A stretch of DNA of 64,000 nt, taken from contig CABIIJ010000060.1 of NCBI GenBank assembly GCA_902175065.1, positions 2,445-66,444 on the forward strand, written 5' to 3'. The DNA comes from an uncultured Comamonas sp. (lineage in GTDB: Bacteria; Pseudomonadota; Gammaproteobacteria; Burkholderiales; Burkholderiaceae_C). A program made the translations under genes and the position numbers. Shown here piece by piece: positions 3,371 through 29,525 of this stretch. The first letter of the stretch is position 1, and every line of letters starts with the position of its first letter. The notes under the pieces were generated by a model, which saw only the letters and a list, made by a program, of their open reading frames with translations, was not told where the DNA came from and did not search any database.

Positions 3371-4354
3371 CGGCTTGCCGCGCCCCTGCAACCAGGCAAT
3401 CAGCTCGCCCATGATGCCCCGGCGGAAGGCCAGCACGCACACGATGAAGATCAGCCCGGTGACGATGGTCACCGACTCGCCCAGGCTGCTGAACCATTCC
3501 AGCCCGGTGGTTCGGGCCAGCCAGGCGCCCAGGTCGCCGATCTTGTTCTCCAGCGCCACCACCACGGCAGCGCCGACCAGCGGGCCGCTCAAGGTGCCCA
3601 TGCCGCCGACCAGGGTCATCAGCACGACGTGGCCGGACATGCTCCAGTGAACGTCCGAAAGGGTGGCAAAACCCAGCACCAGGGTTTTCAGCGCCCCGGC
3701 CAGCCCGGCAATGGCAGCCGACAGCACAAAGGCCAGCAGCTTGAAACGGTTGGTGTCATAGCCCAGCGAGGTGGCGCGGGCCTCGTTTTCCTTGATGCCC
3801 TTGAGCACCTGCCCGAAGGGCGAGTGGATGGTGCGCACGATCAGCAGGAAGCCCACGACCACGATGGCCACGGTGACGTAGTACATCACCATGTCGTTGG
3901 ACAAATCGAGCAGGCCGAACAGCTTGCCACGCGGCACGCCTTGCAGGCCGTCCTCGCCGCCGGTAAACGGCGCTTGCAGGCAGGCAAAGAACAGCATTTG
4001 CGCCAGCGCTAGGGTAATCATGGTGGCGTAGATGCCCTGGCGGCGGATGGTGAACCAGCCCATCACCAGCCCCAGCAGCGCCCCGCTGGCAGTACCGGCG
4101 AGCAGGCCGATTTCGGGGGTGGCACTCCATTCCTTGACCACATGGCCGCAGACGTAGGCCGCGCCGCCCAGAAAGGCGGCATGGCCGAACGACAGCAGCC
4201 CGGTATAGCCCAGCAGCAGGTTGAAGGCCACGGCAAACAGGGCGAAGCACAGCAGCTTCATGACGAAAATCGGGTACGCACCGGCAAACGGCGCAACCAG
4301 CAGGGCCAGCAACAGCAGGCCGTAGCCGATGGGGGCAATTTTTTGCATCTTCAT
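3368..4354 (-). CDS. livM: Branched-chain amino acid-type ABC permease (LivM-like)
   Basis: FNLLLGYTGLLSFGHAAF, GGEDGL, GGMGTLSGPLVGA motifs. Confidence 0.9.
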   Translation of the reverse strand: MKMQKIAPIGYGLLLLALLVAPFAGAYPIFVMKLLCFALFAVAFNLLLGYTGLLSFGHAAFLGGAAYVCGHVVKEWSATPEIGLLAGTASGALLGLVMGWFTIRRQGIYATMITLALAQMLFFACLQAPFTGGEDGLQGVPRGKLFGLLDLSNDMVMYYVTVAIVVVGFLLIVRTIHSPFGQVLKGIKENEARATSLGYDTNRFKLLAFVLSAAIAGLAGALKTLVLGFATLSDVHWSMSGHVVLMTLVGGMGTLSGPLVGAAVVVALENKIGDLGAWLARTTGLEWFSSLGESVTIVTGLIFIVCVLAFRRGIMGELIAWLQGRGKP

Positions 4355-24545: not shown

Positions 24546-25400
24546 ATGTCCGACCGCCTTGCCGTCCTGCCCCAATACCTGCTGCCCAAACAAGCCCTGA
24601 CCCGCCTGATGGGTCGCCTTGCCGGCCTGGAAGGCGGGGCCGCCACCACCGCCGTCATCCGCTGGTTCATCCAGCGCTACAACGTCAACATGGGCGAAGC
24701 GCTGGAGGCCGACCCCGCCGCGTACAAAAGCTTCAACCAGTTCTTCACCCGCCCCCTGCGCCCCGGCGTGCGCCCCCTGGCCGATGCCGACTGGATCTGC
24801 CCCGTCGATGGGGCCATCAGCCAACTGGGTGCCATCACCGGCAACGCAGGCGACCAGATTTTTCAGGCCAAGGGCCACCACTACAGCACCCAGGCCCTGG
24901 TCGGCGGCGATGCTCAACTGGCCGCGCAATTTGCCCACGGCCACTTCGCCACCATCTACTTAAGCCCGCGTGACTACCACCGCATCCACATGCCCTGCGC
25001 AGGGCGGCTGCTGCGCATGATCCACGTGCCGGGCGAGCTGTTCTCCGTCAACCCCACCACCGCCCGGGGCGTGCCCGGCCTGTTCGCCCGCAACGAGCGC
25101 GTGGTCTGCGTGTTCGAGGGCGAGTTCGGCCCCTTCGTACTGGTGCTGGTCGGCGCCACCATCGTCGGCAGCATGGCCACCGTCTGGCACGGCTTGGTCA
25201 ACCCGCCGCGCCCCGGCCAGTTGCGTGAATGGCACTACACCGACCAGCACATCCACCTGCAACGCGGCGAGGAAATGGGCCGCTTCCTGCTCGGCTCCAC
25301 CGTCGTGCTGCTCATGCCCCAGGGTGGCCTGCAATTCAACCCCGGCTGGCAAGCCGCCACCCCCGTACGCCTGGGCGAAGCCATGGCCCGGCAAGGCTGA
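24546..25400 (+). CDS. psd: Phosphatidylserine decarboxylase proenzyme
   Basis: FNQFFTR, YLSPRDYHRIH, FARNER, LLGST self-cleavage motif. Confidence 0.96.
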   Translation: MSDRLAVLPQYLLPKQALTRLMGRLAGLEGGAATTAVIRWFIQRYNVNMGEALEADPAAYKSFNQFFTRPLRPGVRPLADADWICPVDGAISQLGAITGNAGDQIFQAKGHHYSTQALVGGDAQLAAQFAHGHFATIYLSPRDYHRIHMPCAGRLLRMIHVPGELFSVNPTTARGVPGLFARNERVVCVFEGEFGPFVLVLVGATIVGSMATVWHGLVNPPRPGQLREWHYTDQHIHLQRGEEMGRFLLGSTVVLLMPQGGLQFNPGWQAATPVRLGEAMARQG

Positions 25401-25434: not shown

Positions 25435-25473
25435 AGCGCCTGCCAGACCACGCTCTGGAGGCGCTTTTTTTTT
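25435..25473 (+). terminator. Intrinsic terminator after psd
   Basis: AGCGCCTGCCAGA...TCTGGAGGCGCT followed by a T run. Confidence 0.75.
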
Positions 25474-25490
25474 ACGCACCCTGAGCGGCC

Positions 25491-25522
25491 CGACACAGTG
25501 TGTCGCACCGGCTTCTTACAGT
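25491..25522 (+). promoter_or_regulatory. Putative WYL operator/promoter 1
   Basis: CGACA-CAGTG-TGTCG-N11-TACAGT; same layout as 27000-27031. Confidence 0.7.
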
Positions 25523-25585
25523 GGCTTGCACGGCACGGCCTTCACCGCTGCGCCTGCTGCCCACCCCTTGAATGGAAAGAAGCCC

Positions 25586-26125
25586 ATGCCCTCCTTTTGC
25601 TCCCAATGCGGCCAACCTGCCCCGGAACACGACCCCTCCTGCCTCGTGCACCGGCTAGCGCAGCAACGCCTGCCGCCCCTGGCCGAGAAAACACCCTTTG
25701 CCAATCCCGCCCCTACGCCAGCGGATAGCAGGCCTCATGCAGCCAAACCGCCCCAGCCCCAGGGCAAGACAGGCCACCGTTATTTCAGCCCCTTGAATAA
25801 ATTTATCTGGGTATTGGCTTTCGCCCCGTTGATCGGCCTGTTTCTTGAATACACCATCGCCCATCTGTTCTACAGCAGCAGTTTCAAGGCCAATGCTGCG
25901 TTTCAGGCTGGTTACTTCTTTTGGGTCACGGTCCTTCTGAATATCAAACTCTGCATGCAGGATGAAAAGCACCTGAAAAAACACGGTATCGACACCCAGC
26001 CCATCGGCGCAGCATGGCTGGTGCCCGTGTATATCTTCAAAAGAAGCAAGCACCTGCAAGACGGCCCCCTGTATTTCTACCTCTGGATTGGCAGCATGAT
26101 TGCCGCCGTTATTTTGAACGCCTGA
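25586..26125 (+). CDS. Hypothetical membrane protein with a degenerate N-terminal zinc ribbon (179 aa)
   Basis: MPSFCSQCG start, Pro-rich linker, C-terminal hydrophobic helices with WLVPVYIFKR; lower GC in the 3' part. Confidence 0.7.
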   Translation: MPSFCSQCGQPAPEHDPSCLVHRLAQQRLPPLAEKTPFANPAPTPADSRPHAAKPPQPQGKTGHRYFSPLNKFIWVLAFAPLIGLFLEYTIAHLFYSSSFKANAAFQAGYFFWVTVLLNIKLCMQDEKHLKKHGIDTQPIGAAWLVPVYIFKRSKHLQDGPLYFYLWIGSMIAAVILNA

Positions 26126-26203
26126 TCTTTTCCGAAGGCGACGCCAGCATTTTCTACAACGGCGAAATCCGGTAATCCGCCCCCATATCCAGAAAGTCCC
26201 ACC

Positions 26204-26542
26204 ATGAGTTTTTGCCGAGGCTGCGGCACCACGCTGCACGAAACCGCCCCCACCTGCCCGCACTGCGGCGCTCCTCAAAACCTGCCATCCGCCGACACCC
26301 CCGGCACGCTCTGGCTGCCCGTACCGGCGCTGGTCGTGGGCATCCTGGCGCTGCTGGCCGCCATCGGTCTGGCAGACTCCGAACTCATCGACCAGGAGGA
26401 ATACATAGGCACCCTGCTGTTCGCCGGCATCGCCATCGCCCTGGGCGCCGTCGGCACCTACCAGCAGGAAAAAGGCCGGGGCATGTCCATTGCCGGATTG
26501 GTACTGGGCAGCATCGCCCTGGTGATTGGGCTTGCAATTTGA
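26204..26542 (+). CDS. Zinc-ribbon plus 3-TM membrane protein (DUF4190-like)
   Basis: FCRGCG..CPHCG and three hydrophobic helices ending GMSIAGLVLG. Confidence 0.8.
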   Translation: MSFCRGCGTTLHETAPTCPHCGAPQNLPSADTPGTLWLPVPALVVGILALLAAIGLADSELIDQEEYIGTLLFAGIAIALGAVGTYQQEKGRGMSIAGLVLGSIALVIGLAI

Positions 26543-26633
26543 AAAAAGAGAGCTGCCAGCGCTGATATTCAGAAGATTTCAAGGATAAAAACACCTGAAA
26601 TCATTGCCAATCAAGCGCGAGCAGCTTCCTTTA
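26543..26633. repeat. Family A dyad element, copy 4
   Basis: AGCT 26551, CGCT 26560, TCAA 26579, CTGA 26595, AGCG 26614, AGCT 26623. Confidence 0.85.
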
Positions 26634-26641
26634 TCGAGAAA

Positions 26642-26896
26642 TTATTCCTCTCGCGCCGCCTGCTGCGCCAGCACGCGACGCTCTGCATCGTCCAGCACAT
26701 CCGCCACCCGCACATCCAGCGCCGCACACAGACGCAACAACATGCGCACGCTGGGGCTGCTGCGGCCCAGCTCGATCAGCGACAGGTAATTGCGATCCAT
26801 CTGCACGCGCAGGGCCAAGTCGGACTGGCTCCAGCCCCGCTCCGTCCGCAACTTGCGCAGCGCCTGCCCCAGCGCCTGATCGACCACATCGCTCAT
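26642..26896 (-). CDS. XRE-family HTH regulator (84 aa)
   Basis: LRKLRTERGWSQSDLA..YLSLIELGRSSPSV; ATG 26896. Confidence 0.9.
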   Translation of the reverse strand: MSDVVDQALGQALRKLRTERGWSQSDLALRVQMDRNYLSLIELGRSSPSVRMLLRLCAALDVRVADVLDDAERRVLAQQAAREE

Positions 26897-26928
26897 GGCG
26901 CAAGCGTGCGGCAGCTTGTGTCTCAAAA

Positions 26929-26946
26929 TGCCGTATAAATACGGCA
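26929..26946. promoter_or_regulatory. Perfect palindrome, probable XRE operator
   Basis: TGCCGTAT-AA-ATACGGCA, 33 bp upstream of the XRE start. Confidence 0.6.
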
Positions 26947-26999
26947 GAATGTGACAGACAAGCGCTTACATATCAAACATAAAGATTCTTTTAGTAACA

Positions 27000-27031
27000 C
27001 GACACAACCTGTCGCACCCCAGAACTACAGT
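27000..27031 (+). promoter_or_regulatory. Putative WYL operator/promoter 2
   Basis: CGACA-CAACC-TGTCG-N11-TACAGT, 30 bp upstream of the WYL ATG. Confidence 0.7.
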
Positions 27032-27061: not shown

Positions 27062-27988
27062 ATGCCTCCCCGCCCCCCTGCTGCTGCCACCAACGCCAAA
27101 GACACCAAAGGCGAAAAACTCGCCCAGCGCCTGGCGCACATCATTGCCCGGCTGCACCAGGGCGAAACCATCGACAAACACCAGTTGGCGACCAAATTCG
27201 ACGTCGATGTTCGCACCATCGAACGCGACCTGCACCAGCGCCTGCAAGGCATTGCCGAACGCAACCCCCAGGGCCAATGGCAGCTCACCCTGACCGCCCA
27301 AAGCACCATCCCGGCCAGGCACCTGCACGACTACGCCCGCATGGCCGGTACCGAACACCTGTTCCCCAACAACACCCTGCCCTACCTGCTGGAACAACTG
27401 GCCACCCCCAAGCAGCGCCGCGCCACCCACGTCCAGCCCGTGCCGCATGAAGACCTGGACGGCAACACCCCCACCTTCACCGCGCTGGAAACCGCCATCG
27501 CCCAGCGCCACCTGTGCCGCTTCACCTACAAAACCAAACCGCGCAGCGCCCAGCCCTACCGCCTGATTCATAAAAACGGCGTCTGGTACCTGGCCGCCGA
27601 AGAAGCAAGCCGCCTGAAAAACTTCAGCATCGCGCTGATCGAAAACCTGCAAGTCGATACCAGCCAGCACTTCACCCCCAAGCAAACCCACCTGGAATAC
27701 ATCGCCGCCAAAGACGACGTGTGGTTTACCGAACAAACCACCGAAGTCCTGCTGCGCGTGGCCCCCGCCATCGCCCACTACTTCGCCCGCCGCCCGCTGC
27801 TGCCCCGGCAACAGCACCGCCAGGACAGCGACGGCACCCTGCTCGTCACCACCCATATCAACCACATCAACCAGTTATTGCCCGTAGTGCGCTATTGGCT
27901 GCCGCATGTGCGGATTATTCAGCCGGTGGCGTGGCAGGAAGAATTGATGAAGGGGTTGCGGGAGGTGTTGGGGCAGTGGAATCCATAA
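27062..27988 (+). CDS. WYL-domain transcriptional regulator (wHTH-WYL-WCX)
   Basis: HTH LATKFDVDVRTIERDL; PYRLIHKNGVWYLAAEE; C-terminal LLPVVRYWLPHVRIIQP; ATG 27062 preferred over GTG 26951. Confidence 0.92.
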   Translation: MPPRPPAAATNAKDTKGEKLAQRLAHIIARLHQGETIDKHQLATKFDVDVRTIERDLHQRLQGIAERNPQGQWQLTLTAQSTIPARHLHDYARMAGTEHLFPNNTLPYLLEQLATPKQRRATHVQPVPHEDLDGNTPTFTALETAIAQRHLCRFTYKTKPRSAQPYRLIHKNGVWYLAAEEASRLKNFSIALIENLQVDTSQHFTPKQTHLEYIAAKDDVWFTEQTTEVLLRVAPAIAHYFARRPLLPRQQHRQDSDGTLLVTTHINHINQLLPVVRYWLPHVRIIQPVAWQEELMKGLREVLGQWNP

Positions 27989-28011: not shown

Positions 28012-28332
28012 ATGCAATTCATTCTTTTTTTGCTGCTTGTATTCACCATCGGTTGTGTGATGTATGGAATTTCTGCGGGGGTGCAAGGAATTCAACAGGG
28101 CGCTAGCTGGCTGGCCAATCACAGCCACGACGACAACACCAACCAACTCCAATCTACTAAGCACTCCAACACCACAGACAGTAACGAGCAAGCCTCCAAT
28201 ACTGCACACGGCATTGAAGAACTACAGACGCTTTTTGCCCTACATCAACAAGGCGCACTGACTTCGCAAGAGTTTCAAGAAATGAAAAAGCACTTGCTGC
28301 TCTCCCTTCGCTCCAAACAGCATGGTCACTAA
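28012..28332 (+). CDS. Membrane-anchored SHOCT-domain protein
   Basis: N-terminal TM helix; C-terminal IEELQTLFALHQQGALTSQEFQEMKKHLL; RBS AGGAG. Confidence 0.8.
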   Translation: MQFILFLLLVFTIGCVMYGISAGVQGIQQGASWLANHSHDDNTNQLQSTKHSNTTDSNEQASNTAHGIEELQTLFALHQQGALTSQEFQEMKKHLLLSLRSKQHGH

Positions 28333-28368
28333 AAGCCATTTTTGATTCTCTCCTCTGAAAGATTTTCT

Positions 28369-29334
28369 ATGACTATTCCACTTATTATCGGACTCGCTAC
28401 CACCGCTCATCTTGCCAAAAAGGGCTATGATAATTATCAAAAAAATTCAGAAGCCGATGAAATCATCAAAGAAGCTAATACTCGATATGAGAGCAAAAAA
28501 AACTTTTGTAATGAAAAAGAGAAAGAAGCACGAACAGCTCTTGAACTGCTTGAAAAAAAAGTGCTAAAGATTAGTGAAAGTTTCTCCAAAATAAAAATTT
28601 TAACCAACACTCTTATTGATCAAGATAATATAGAGCAAATAAATAAAACAAACATCAACATTTTAAAATATAAACTACAAAAAATCAACAACTACAGTCA
28701 TTCTTCCATTAATTTATCCACAACCAATTTTATATTTCCCTCACTAAATATTGAATCACTCGTTGGTGATAGTTTTGGCATTTCTGGCTTGCTGAGAACC
28801 GTCGTTACTTCGCCTGCTTTCACCATTGCCAGCCGGACTTATAACAGCCATGGTGACGAAGCCTTAGAAAATTCCTACAAAGACCGCGAAGAGATCAACA
28901 GCGCGATTCGAGAACTCATCAAAAATGCTCAAAAATTTGAAGAAACCGCAAATTATGCCAACAAAATAATAAATGAACTAACCAATAGTTTTGATAAATT
29001 TCAGCAATACTTTGAGAAACTCAAAAATATCAACGATTTTATCGAACAAAGTGAAAAAATCAATATTAACACTGATGCTTCTTTGAAAAATCTAAATAAC
29101 CAATCTTTATCCATCATTCAAAATGGTTATTTAATCGCCACTATTTTGGCAGACGTCATCGCCATTCCCTTCTTCATGCTTCAAAAATCCAATAACGCTG
29201 TTCTATGCAATGAAGATGGCGTACCCGAAATGGCGAAAGATGCCGATGGCTCCCTGATTATTAACAAAGCGGAAATAGACGCATCTTTAGATAAAGCAAA
29301 ATTTGACGCCAGTCTAATAATGGACATTATTTAA
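28369..29334 (+). CDS. Hypothetical helical protein A (321 aa), paralogue of 31127-32125
   Basis: Open AT-rich ORF; MTIPLIIG start; shared block PAFTIA...GDEALENSY. Confidence 0.8.
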   Translation: MTIPLIIGLATTAHLAKKGYDNYQKNSEADEIIKEANTRYESKKNFCNEKEKEARTALELLEKKVLKISESFSKIKILTNTLIDQDNIEQINKTNINILKYKLQKINNYSHSSINLSTTNFIFPSLNIESLVGDSFGISGLLRTVVTSPAFTIASRTYNSHGDEALENSYKDREEINSAIRELIKNAQKFEETANYANKIINELTNSFDKFQQYFEKLKNINDFIEQSEKININTDASLKNLNNQSLSIIQNGYLIATILADVIAIPFFMLQKSNNAVLCNEDGVPEMAKDADGSLIINKAEIDASLDKAKFDASLIMDII

Positions 29335-29525
29335 TCAGCATAATTTACAACTCCTGGATAGTGTCGTATTTTTAATTATTCAATAAATAAAATATGCAAA
29401 CCTCTTATGCCCCTCAGCAACAGCACCACGAAGACAGCGACGGATCTCTGTTCATTAACACTCATATCAACCAGTTACTACCCTTCGTGCGCTCTTGACT
29501 GACGCATATACAGATTAAAGCCCCT

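Follow-up and report, generated by a model that had tools for sequence, protein, structure and literature searches.

PafBC in Actinobacteria, DriD in Alphaproteobacteria, and DdaA in Moraxellaceae are WYL-family transcriptional activators that sense single-stranded DNA (ssDNA) and whose workings have been elucidated. Full-text searches turned up no publication about WYL regulators of Comamonadaceae, and the DdaA paper makes no mention of Betaproteobacteria or Burkholderiales. Here, we describe a WYL regulator gene of an uncultured Comamonas sp., together with two matching palindromic boxes that probably form its operator-promoter units, in a 64-kilobase (kb) stretch of DNA (contig CABIIJ010000060.1 of assembly GCA_902175065.1, positions 2,445 to 66,444; hereafter the window).

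DriD of Caulobacter crescentus is an ssDNA-sensing homodimeric activator with the domain order wHTH-3HB-WYL-WCX (wHTH, winged helix-turn-helix) (PMC9186387, PMC10853764, PMC13004042). It binds the operator ATACGAC(X)7GTCGTAT, in which G2, C4, G12, and C14 are the key bases (PMC13004042), with Arg37, Glu40, and Arg41 reading G2, C1, and C4 (PMC10853764). According to a cryo-electron microscopy study from 2026, the DriD boxes overlap the place of the -35 element at one fixed distance from the -10 element, in promoters that have no -35, and DriD is not autoregulated (PMC13004042). By our own reading of the oligonucleotides in that paper, a CAA begins 11 nt after GTCG or GGCG in the driD/CCNA_03891, didA, and bapE promoters, and the "optimised -35" TTGACA stands 17 nt ahead of that CAA hexamer (PMC13004042). 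DdaA is a homodimeric wHTH-WYL-WCX activator of damage and defense genes with the operator CGWCA-N5-TGWCG, and its regulon includes recA, ssb, uvrA, and aciT. PafBC of mycobacteria is a heterodimeric WYL activator that works via sigma adaptation (PMC8635444, PMC11804915). The CapW/BrxR proteins are WYL repressors that head CBASS, BREX, and other defense islands (PMC9122588, PMC9122601, PMC11662680); CapW-type operators overlap the -10 element (PMC9122588), and the DNA-reading residues of CapW/BrxR are Ser/Gln/Ser.

The two boxes of the window, CGACACAGTGTGTCGCACC at 25491-25509 (box 1) and CGACACAACCTGTCGCACC at 27000-27018 (box 2), are identical at 16 of 19 positions (84%), and each is followed by the hexamer TACAGT exactly 11 nt past its 15-nt palindrome (Table 1). 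The pattern CGAC-N7-GTCG-N11-TANNNT matches the window only at these two places, both on the + strand, against an expectation of 0.00 from 100 dinucleotide-preserving shuffles, and a search for CGACA-N5-TGTCG with one mismatch permitted still returns just boxes 1 and 2. Box 1 stands ahead of open reading frames (ORFs) for zinc-ribbon membrane proteins, and box 2 ahead of the HTH-WYL-WCX gene. A preliminary description made from the letters of the window had reported the twin CGAC-N7-GTCG palindromes with their 16/19 match, the TACAGT at N11, and this assignment to genes, all of which were confirmed on the sequence. The motifs that it had given for DriD, ATACGAC(X)7GTCGTAT (PMC13004042), and for PafBC, tGTCgg(N10)tA(N3)T (PMC8635444), were also correct.

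Taking TACAGT as -12 to -7, the palindrome spans approximately -38 to -24 and is centered at about -31. No sigma-70 -35/-10 pair is predicted at box 1 or box 2, and an extended -10 TG is present at neither TACAGT. Both sites read TGTCGC-N10-TACAGT, which agrees with the PafBC promoter grammar lacking a -35. The predicted leader of the first promoter (P1) is 57 nt long and carries GGAAAGAAG ahead of the ATG at 25586, and at the second promoter (P2) the distance from box 2 to the ATG of the WYL gene (27062) is 48 nt, the full pattern lying 31 nt ahead of this gene.

The box is conserved well beyond the window. In a comparative set of 41 related genome loci around WYL homologues, the full 32-nt pattern occurs in 32 loci with 36 matches. 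Each match is co-oriented with the WYL gene, and most lie 30-100 nt ahead of its start; the box precedes the WYL gene in at least 28 genome loci. An alignment of 29 upstream regions revealed diverged flanks, a fairly constant distance to the ATG, and the consensus CGACAC-A-A-C-C-TGTCGCA ... TA-n-A-G-T. Since these 29 regions had been chosen by the pattern, an independent test was made with the palindrome only (CGACA-N5-TGTCG, no -10 required); it recovered 26 WYL-proximal sites, and TANNNT lies at exactly N11 in 26 of 26. The box-to-minus-10 geometry proposed for the window is thereby seen to be strictly kept across genera. The closest genomes without an exact WYL-proximal match, C. denitrificans (L003) and C. 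nitrativorans (L001), harbor variants with one mismatch, namely CGGC...GTCG-N11-TACAGT before the WYL gene of the former and CGAC...GCCG-N11-TACATT at both promoters of the latter. These variants retain N11 and differ only at positions 3 and 13, which likewise vary among DriD sites (PMC10853764). The GCCG box of C. nitrativorans shows no co-variation with the recognition helix, which is unchanged (IRTIERDL), and this fits because DriD tolerates change at position 13. The box is absent from the 30-34% identical WYL homologues of Campylobacterota (L038, L039), which confines the footprint to the Comamonadaceae/Burkholderiales clade plus a 42% identical relative (L036). As judged from these alignments, the boxes represent a phylogenetic footprint of conserved, predicted operator-promoter units.

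The WYL protein has 487 homologues, of which the best 120 share 65-97% identity with it (Comamonas, Alicycliphilus, Acidovorax, and related genera), and its gene is a core gene of Comamonadaceae. In addition to the WYL and WCX domains, Pfam returns a weak HTH_11 match, which together give the domain order of the DriD type, and a structure model shows, with low confidence, linker helices (residues 77-82, 85-95, and 106-114) that connect the wHTH to the WYL barrel. In a single-sequence search against PDB sequences, DriD is the sole family match (E about 0.03), with PafBC and BrxR/CapW unmatched; a family-profile search yields DriD at 2.6e-5 and PafBC at 4e-3, with BrxR/CapW again unmatched; and a fold search against PDB structures yields DriD at 2e-11 (full-length), PafBC at 7e-9, and BrxR/CapW at 1e-7 or weaker. 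The residues R51-T52-I53-E54-R55 are invariant in 16 homologues and are spaced as R37-T38-x-E40-R41 of DriD, where the match of R51/E54/R55 is an alignment by inspection, the wHTH lying outside the HMMER alignment. The ssDNA-contact residues Y156, R161, and Y176 of DriD are kept in a sequence-alignment reading. The protein is thus nearest to DriD and then to PafBC, so that the earlier claim of a DriD/PafBC-like rather than BrxR/CapW-like regulator stood in this part, and it likely belongs to an uncharacterized clade of DriD/DdaA-like WYL regulators in Betaproteobacteria.

With DriD, the locus shares the operator core CGxC-N7-GxCG with variation at positions 3 and 13, the R-x-x-E-R helix, a box that covers the -35 position and keeps one set distance to the -10 in a promoter without a -35, and one target set consisting of small membrane proteins (didA in DriD). 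However, it belongs to another proteobacterial class, its boxes lack the flanking ATA/TAT, and its spacer is C-rich (ACAACCT), whereas that of DriD is AT-rich. The targets also differ, being didA, bapE, recJ, and dnaG for DriD and membrane and defense-like genes here, and a box and -10 of the window point into the regulator's own gene, unlike in DriD. With DdaA, the likeness lies in the extended half-sites, as both window boxes and the 26 WYL-proximal boxes (CGACA-N5-TGTCG) conform to CGWCA-N5-TGWCG, the aciT site being CGACAATATGTGTCG and box 1 CGACACAGTGTGTCG; DdaA also controls defense genes. In contrast, DdaA boxes are reported ~50 bp upstream of the start site of transcription (TSS; ~160 bp before aciT), versus about -31 and base-exact here, and the recA, ssb, uvrA, and aciT genes found behind them were not seen behind the boxes of this study, the likeness to DdaA being drawn from its operator and description. 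With PafBC, the second-best PDB match, the shared features are the half-site-to-minus-10 grammar (tGTCgg-N10-tA-N3-T and TGTCGC-N10-TACAGT), the lack of a -35, and a GTC triplet read by two arginines four residues apart. However, PafB/PafC is a heterodimer that recognizes a non-palindromic element and binds only with RNA polymerase, whereas a single 308-amino-acid (aa) gene and a full dyad are present here, which does not fit the class defined by a heterodimer and a -26 element.

Considering sites and protein together, we regard it as probable that the boxes are operator-promoter units of the adjacent WYL regulator and that this regulator is a DriD-type activator. As for the direction of regulation, activation is moderately favored because of the base-exact spacing at 26 of 26 sites, the missing -35, and the affinities of the protein. 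In the proposed mechanism, the R-T-I-E-R helices of a homodimer would contact the two half-sites, with two arginines reading the G and C of CGxC/GxCG. The palindrome at about -38 to -24 would stand in for the absent -35, placing the proximal half-site TGTCGC 10 nt from the -10, in a geometry equal to that of the PafBC "-26 element". Most likely, the bound, ligand-activated protein would recruit or stabilize the housekeeping RNA polymerase holoenzyme on a weak promoter, as in the DriD mode. P1 would then switch on two small zinc-ribbon membrane proteins, and P2 would switch on the regulator itself in a positive feedback and, by read-through, a SHOCT-domain protein and the PDC-M09 cassette. The trigger is likely ssDNA arising from damage, from phage, or from the replication of foreign DNA, a ligand proposed by analogy with all characterized wHTH-WYL-WCX regulators, namely DriD, PafBC, DdaA, and CapW.

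Several observations weigh against an ssDNA-sensing activator of the DriD type. The protein is a distant relative and no orthologue of DriD, with an identity of only ~20%, and the structure model is mediocre (pLDDT, predicted local distance difference test, 66). In the predicted ssDNA pocket, read from the sequence alignment, R204, W206, and R207 of DriD are replaced by K186, F188, and S189. Since DriD is not autoregulated, the predicted positive feedback is without precedent in the closest relative. The public runs in which this sequence occurs come from sludge and wastewater (metagenomes and metatranscriptomes, as contigs), and the four public RNA runs over the region supply a few short contigs without 5' ends. 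Repair genes (recA, uvr, ssb, and others) were not found behind any box in the window, in the 41 genome loci, or in the inspected metagenome loci, a survey of loci and short contigs only; calling the system a "DNA-damage response" is therefore less well founded than calling it a "DriD-like mechanism". In addition, a cargo of potentially toxic membrane and defense-like proteins behind a regulator at the 5' end of the cassette is what BrxR/CapW repressors classically control, and a palindrome covering the -35 region would suit a repressor as well.

The last two points lead to a rather unlikely alternative, in which a CapW/BrxR-style repressor sits on the -35 region of P1 and of its own promoter and leaves upon binding ssDNA, thereby de-repressing the cargo. 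Like the CapW/BrxR proteins, which are also wHTH-WYL-WCX homodimers for which ssDNA is a likely signal, the regulator is encoded directly upstream of a candidate defense cassette from PADLOC, and in other genera it has LeoA-like dynamins and JukA downstream of it, a setting that has been described for BrxR/CapW (PMC9122601, PMC9122588). The operator also extends over core promoter DNA, and a third, promoter-less box over the leader of an XRE gene (see below) could only act negatively. However, CapW operators overlap the -10, whereas the present box never does so, its end always lying 11 nt upstream of the -10, and the helix reads R-T-I-E-R instead of Ser/Gln/Ser. BrxR/CapW proteins are the weakest fold matches among WYL structures, and neither the sequence search nor the profile search returned them. 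They are mobile with their islands, whereas the window gene is vertical, with 60-97% identity across Comamonadaceae, and the cassette behind it is swapped. A repressor would also not need a base-exact 11-nt spacing at 26 of 26 sites, and it would find little to repress because the promoters lack both a -35 and an extended -10.

Far less probable is that the box is read by another factor (the neighboring XRE product, LexA, or an alternative sigma factor with this as its promoter) and merely travels with the WYL gene. In the window and in C. nitrativorans, an XRE gene does separate the boxes, and TGTCGC-N10-TACAGT could formally be a two-block sigma motif. However, the boxes persist without the XRE gene in C. 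denitrificans and in L004, L006, L016, and L033, which led to the rejection of XRE as the binder, and the element is a dyad, which fits a dimeric factor and has a core identical to that of the operators established by experiment for DriD and DdaA. On an unrelated metagenome contig (L056), a distant WYL regulator (CRTIERDL) is preceded by this pattern, too. A LexA/SOS box was likewise rejected, there being no CTGT-N8-ACAG in the window, and the suggested independence of LexA holds just so far as this absence reaches. The comparative data have effectively refuted the notion that the boxes are chance matches or remnants of a dispersed repeat without a regulatory role, for although this 32-nt pattern also occurs in an unrelated dispersed repeat (nine copies in sample Ga0123353) and several single matches lie within coding regions, none is expected in the window, position and strand are kept in 32 of 41 loci across many genera with diverged flanks, and the window copies have no flanking similarity to the repeat.

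A metagenome-wide scan for the stringent form CGACAC-N4-TGTCGC-N10-TACAGT yielded 51 loci. Six of these adjoin WYL orthologues, L056 is the contig with the distant WYL regulator, and L049 precedes a gene whose product begins with MRGQIL. The copies of the repeat, with unrelated downstream genes, account for nine loci (L046, L054, L058, L061, L062, L075, L082, L085, and L087) and are false positives for the motif, and several of the remaining single matches, on inspection, lie within coding regions or before nothing recognizable. Outside the repeat, the recognizable loci are linked to WYL genes. The visible regulon is a local module of membrane and defense-like genes. The repeat itself is ~100 nt long, occurs on at least 9 contigs, and consists of GCGGCAGTTTTTGCGACAAATTTTTCGACACGGCATGTCGCGCC, two to four CTACAG[CT] heptads, and AAAACGGGACTTTTT. 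In freshwater metagenomes, a conserved unit resembling a promoter, ACGACAC-GAGA-TGTCGCG-N9-TACAGT, precedes a 195-aa protein of unknown family (L083, L044, L050, L068, L090). No WYL gene was recognized near this unit, which may mark a regulon member of another lineage or one carried by a mobile element.

Table 1. Positions of the boxes, predicted promoter elements, genes, and terminators in the 64-kb window.
Feature	Position	Strand	Remarks
psd	24546-25400		PF02666 at 6e-58
psd intrinsic terminator	25435-25474	+	hairpin 25435-25465, then U9; -20.1 kcal/mol, z = -3.8
Box 1, predicted WYL operator	25491-25505	+	perfect 7-1-7 palindrome CGACACA-G-TGTGTCG; approximately -38 to -24
P1 minus-10, TACAGT	25517-25522	+	predicted TSS ~25529; fixed 11-nt spacing
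179-aa zinc-ribbon (CxxC...) membrane protein	25586-26125	+	no Pfam match
112-aa zinc-ribbon and DUF4190-like membrane protein	26204-26542	+	sub-threshold Pfam matches
84-aa XRE/Cro-type HTH gene between both units	26642-26896	-	HTH_3 at 7e-15
Box 3, degenerate inverted copy AGACACAAGCTGCCGCAC	26906-26922	-	3 mismatches; 88% complementary to box 2
AT-centered palindrome GCCGTATAAATACGGC	26931-26946	.	54 nt upstream of box 2
Box 2, predicted WYL operator at the promoter of the regulator itself	27000-27014	+	CGACA-CAACC-TGTCG
P2 minus-10, TACAGT	27026-27031	+	predicted TSS ~27038; ATG 27062
308-aa wHTH-(helical linker)-WYL-WCX regulator	27062-27988	+	WYL 5e-11, WCX 2e-10
106-aa N-terminal-transmembrane and SHOCT-domain protein	28012-28332	+	SHOCT 1.7e-6; 24 nt past the WYL stop
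330-aa AT-rich ORF (ORF330)	28342-29334	+	no above-threshold family match
526-aa PDC-M09B homologue, glycine-rich membrane segments	29526-31106	+	PADLOC PDLC04409 at 6e-20
332-aa PDC-M09A homologue	31127-32125	+	PADLOC PDLC04407 at 5e-25
Strong intrinsic terminator	32138-32181	+	19-bp stem and T-run; likely end of the WYL-SHOCT-M09 unit

Box 1 begins 17 nt past the U-run of the psd terminator, and the strength of this terminator implies that box 1 opens a new transcription unit. The 179-aa zinc-ribbon protein of this unit has just 9 homologues among 5.8 billion proteins, forming a narrow lineage-specific family too small to ask whether the box travels with the gene. The 112-aa protein matches Zn_Ribbon_1 at 2.6e-4 (21.1 bits, cutoff 25) and DUF4190 at 1.9e-4 (21.5 bits, cutoff 35), both under the gathering score, and its orthologue in C. 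denitrificans lies at 3386-3724 of that locus. In the second unit, the gaps between the WYL gene, the SHOCT gene, ORF330, and the PDC-M09B and PDC-M09A genes are 24, 10, 192, and 21 nt, the genes are co-directional, and no good terminator was found between the WYL gene and 32138. Given these short gaps and the lack of a terminator before 32138-32181, transcription from P2 likely runs through to PDC-M09A, and the second unit most likely comprises WYL-SHOCT-ORF330-M09B-M09A beyond the WYL gene alone. The cassette (28012-32181) has 33-50% GC, compared with a background of ~62% GC. PDC-M09 is a candidate defense system of PADLOC only. ORF330 has a sub-threshold ferritin-like match (4.4e-5, 23.9 bits versus a cutoff of 24.5), resembles PDC-M09A in its N-terminus, and is missing from C. 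denitrificans. The "two-operon regulon" of the preliminary description thus needs extension: two box-led units are present, with the WYL unit probably continuing through SHOCT, ORF330, and PDC-M09B/A, and a third box is found at the XRE leader. Past the cassette terminator, the window encodes a small CxxCxxCC protein (PF03692; 32190-32474), which also follows the cassette in C. denitrificans, and an antitoxin-like XRE-type HTH protein (32795-33127).

Box 3 ends 10 nt before the ATG of the XRE gene. TANNNT is absent at N11 from it, and box 3 is therefore read as a predicted binding site without a promoter. Its counterpart in C. nitrativorans, CGACACAAGCTGCCGCAC, is of the same form and quality as both promoter boxes of that locus. 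Through box 3, the WYL protein may interfere with the expression of the XRE gene. The AT-centered palindrome between boxes 3 and 2 recurs as GCGGTATAAATACGGC in C. nitrativorans (about 3853-3868) and as CCGCAATAAATGCGG in C. denitrificans (3862-3876), where compensatory arm changes (CCGCA...TGCGG) are seen though the XRE gene is absent. It has a LexA-box-like shape without CTG/CAG, and candidate roles are a UP-like site, a site of another factor, or the XRE promoter.

A second box is also found in relatives. In C. denitrificans and C. nitrativorans, the orthologue of box 1 stands after psd and before zinc-ribbon genes, three of them in C. denitrificans. As stated for the boxes, the XRE gene is present in the window and in C. 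nitrativorans and missing from L003, L004, L006, L016, and L033. In L004, L006, and L016 (Alicycliphilus, Paenacidovorax, and Acidovorax) and on the metagenome contigs L049 and L065/67/74/78, the second box precedes a different small-protein gene with the N-terminal domain MRGQIL.... L006 and L016 show a fusion of this domain to a TM2 membrane domain, and in both loci the next genes encode a DUF4190-like membrane protein and a protein that is secreted. A leader block, CAAAAA-GATAGCTGC-TGCGCTTGC, is kept before the MRGQIL gene (L004, 3447-3581; L006, 1392-1526; L016, 1535-1669) and may be a leader or regulatory RNA element. A C. kerstersii-like lineage harbors a single box ahead of a 158-aa coiled-coil gene and the WYL gene. 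The unit of box and minus-10 is thus reused before varied, mostly small membrane, genes adjoining the regulator.

The genes behind the regulator vary as well. In the window and in L001, L003, L004, and L014, the WYL gene is followed by the SHOCT gene. The cassette behind the WYL gene is PDC-M09B/A in the window, L003, L004, and L021, a LeoA-like dynamin GTPase with JukA in L001, LeoA/LeoBC-like dynamins in L009 and L014, and a DUF2779/PD-(D/E)XK protein in L033. The regulator is conserved by vertical descent, with defense-like, membrane-active cargo swapped behind it, and the position behind the WYL gene looks like an exchangeable defense slot. A further-reaching scenario, which we advance only tentatively, is that a vertically inherited, self-amplifying, ssDNA-sensing activator drives, from the promoter of its own gene, a plug-in slot (SHOCT with interchangeable modules for membrane remodeling or defense, namely PDC-M09, Eleos-like dynamins, JukA, or a DUF2779 nuclease), and that the second box controls zinc-ribbon/TM2 proteins that are perhaps division inhibitors like DidA and AciT.

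New here, relative to the described systems, are the betaproteobacterial lineage, the predicted self-activation, the zinc-ribbon/TM2 targets, and the exchangeable SHOCT and defense cassette in the regulator's operon. An activator-type WYL protein would be tied to a swappable defense-like cassette, a context so far mainly that of repressors, and this could help explain the induction of PDC-M09 and Eleos-like dynamins. If the zinc-ribbon/TM2 proteins are damage-induced division inhibitors, they would constitute a new family of that kind. If the plug-in slot exists as outlined, the locus would represent an inducible, activator-controlled regulon for membrane defense and division arrest, and one grammar of half-site, N10, and minus-10 would be common to the WYL activators of Actinobacteria (PafBC), Alphaproteobacteria (DriD), and Betaproteobacteria. 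With two clean promoters, base-exact spacing, and cultivable hosts (Comamonas denitrificans, Alicycliphilus denitrificans, and Acidovorax sp. GW101-3H11), the locus offers a testable case.

A distant relative of the 179-aa protein, in which a GYF_2 domain replaces the zinc ribbon, is encoded on L093, a contig of P0125 from which the CGAC box is absent. The island on this contig includes a split WYL regulator, a DEAD/ResIII helicase, a DUF2779 protein, an FtsZ/tubulin-like protein, and a PDDEXK_4 nuclease.

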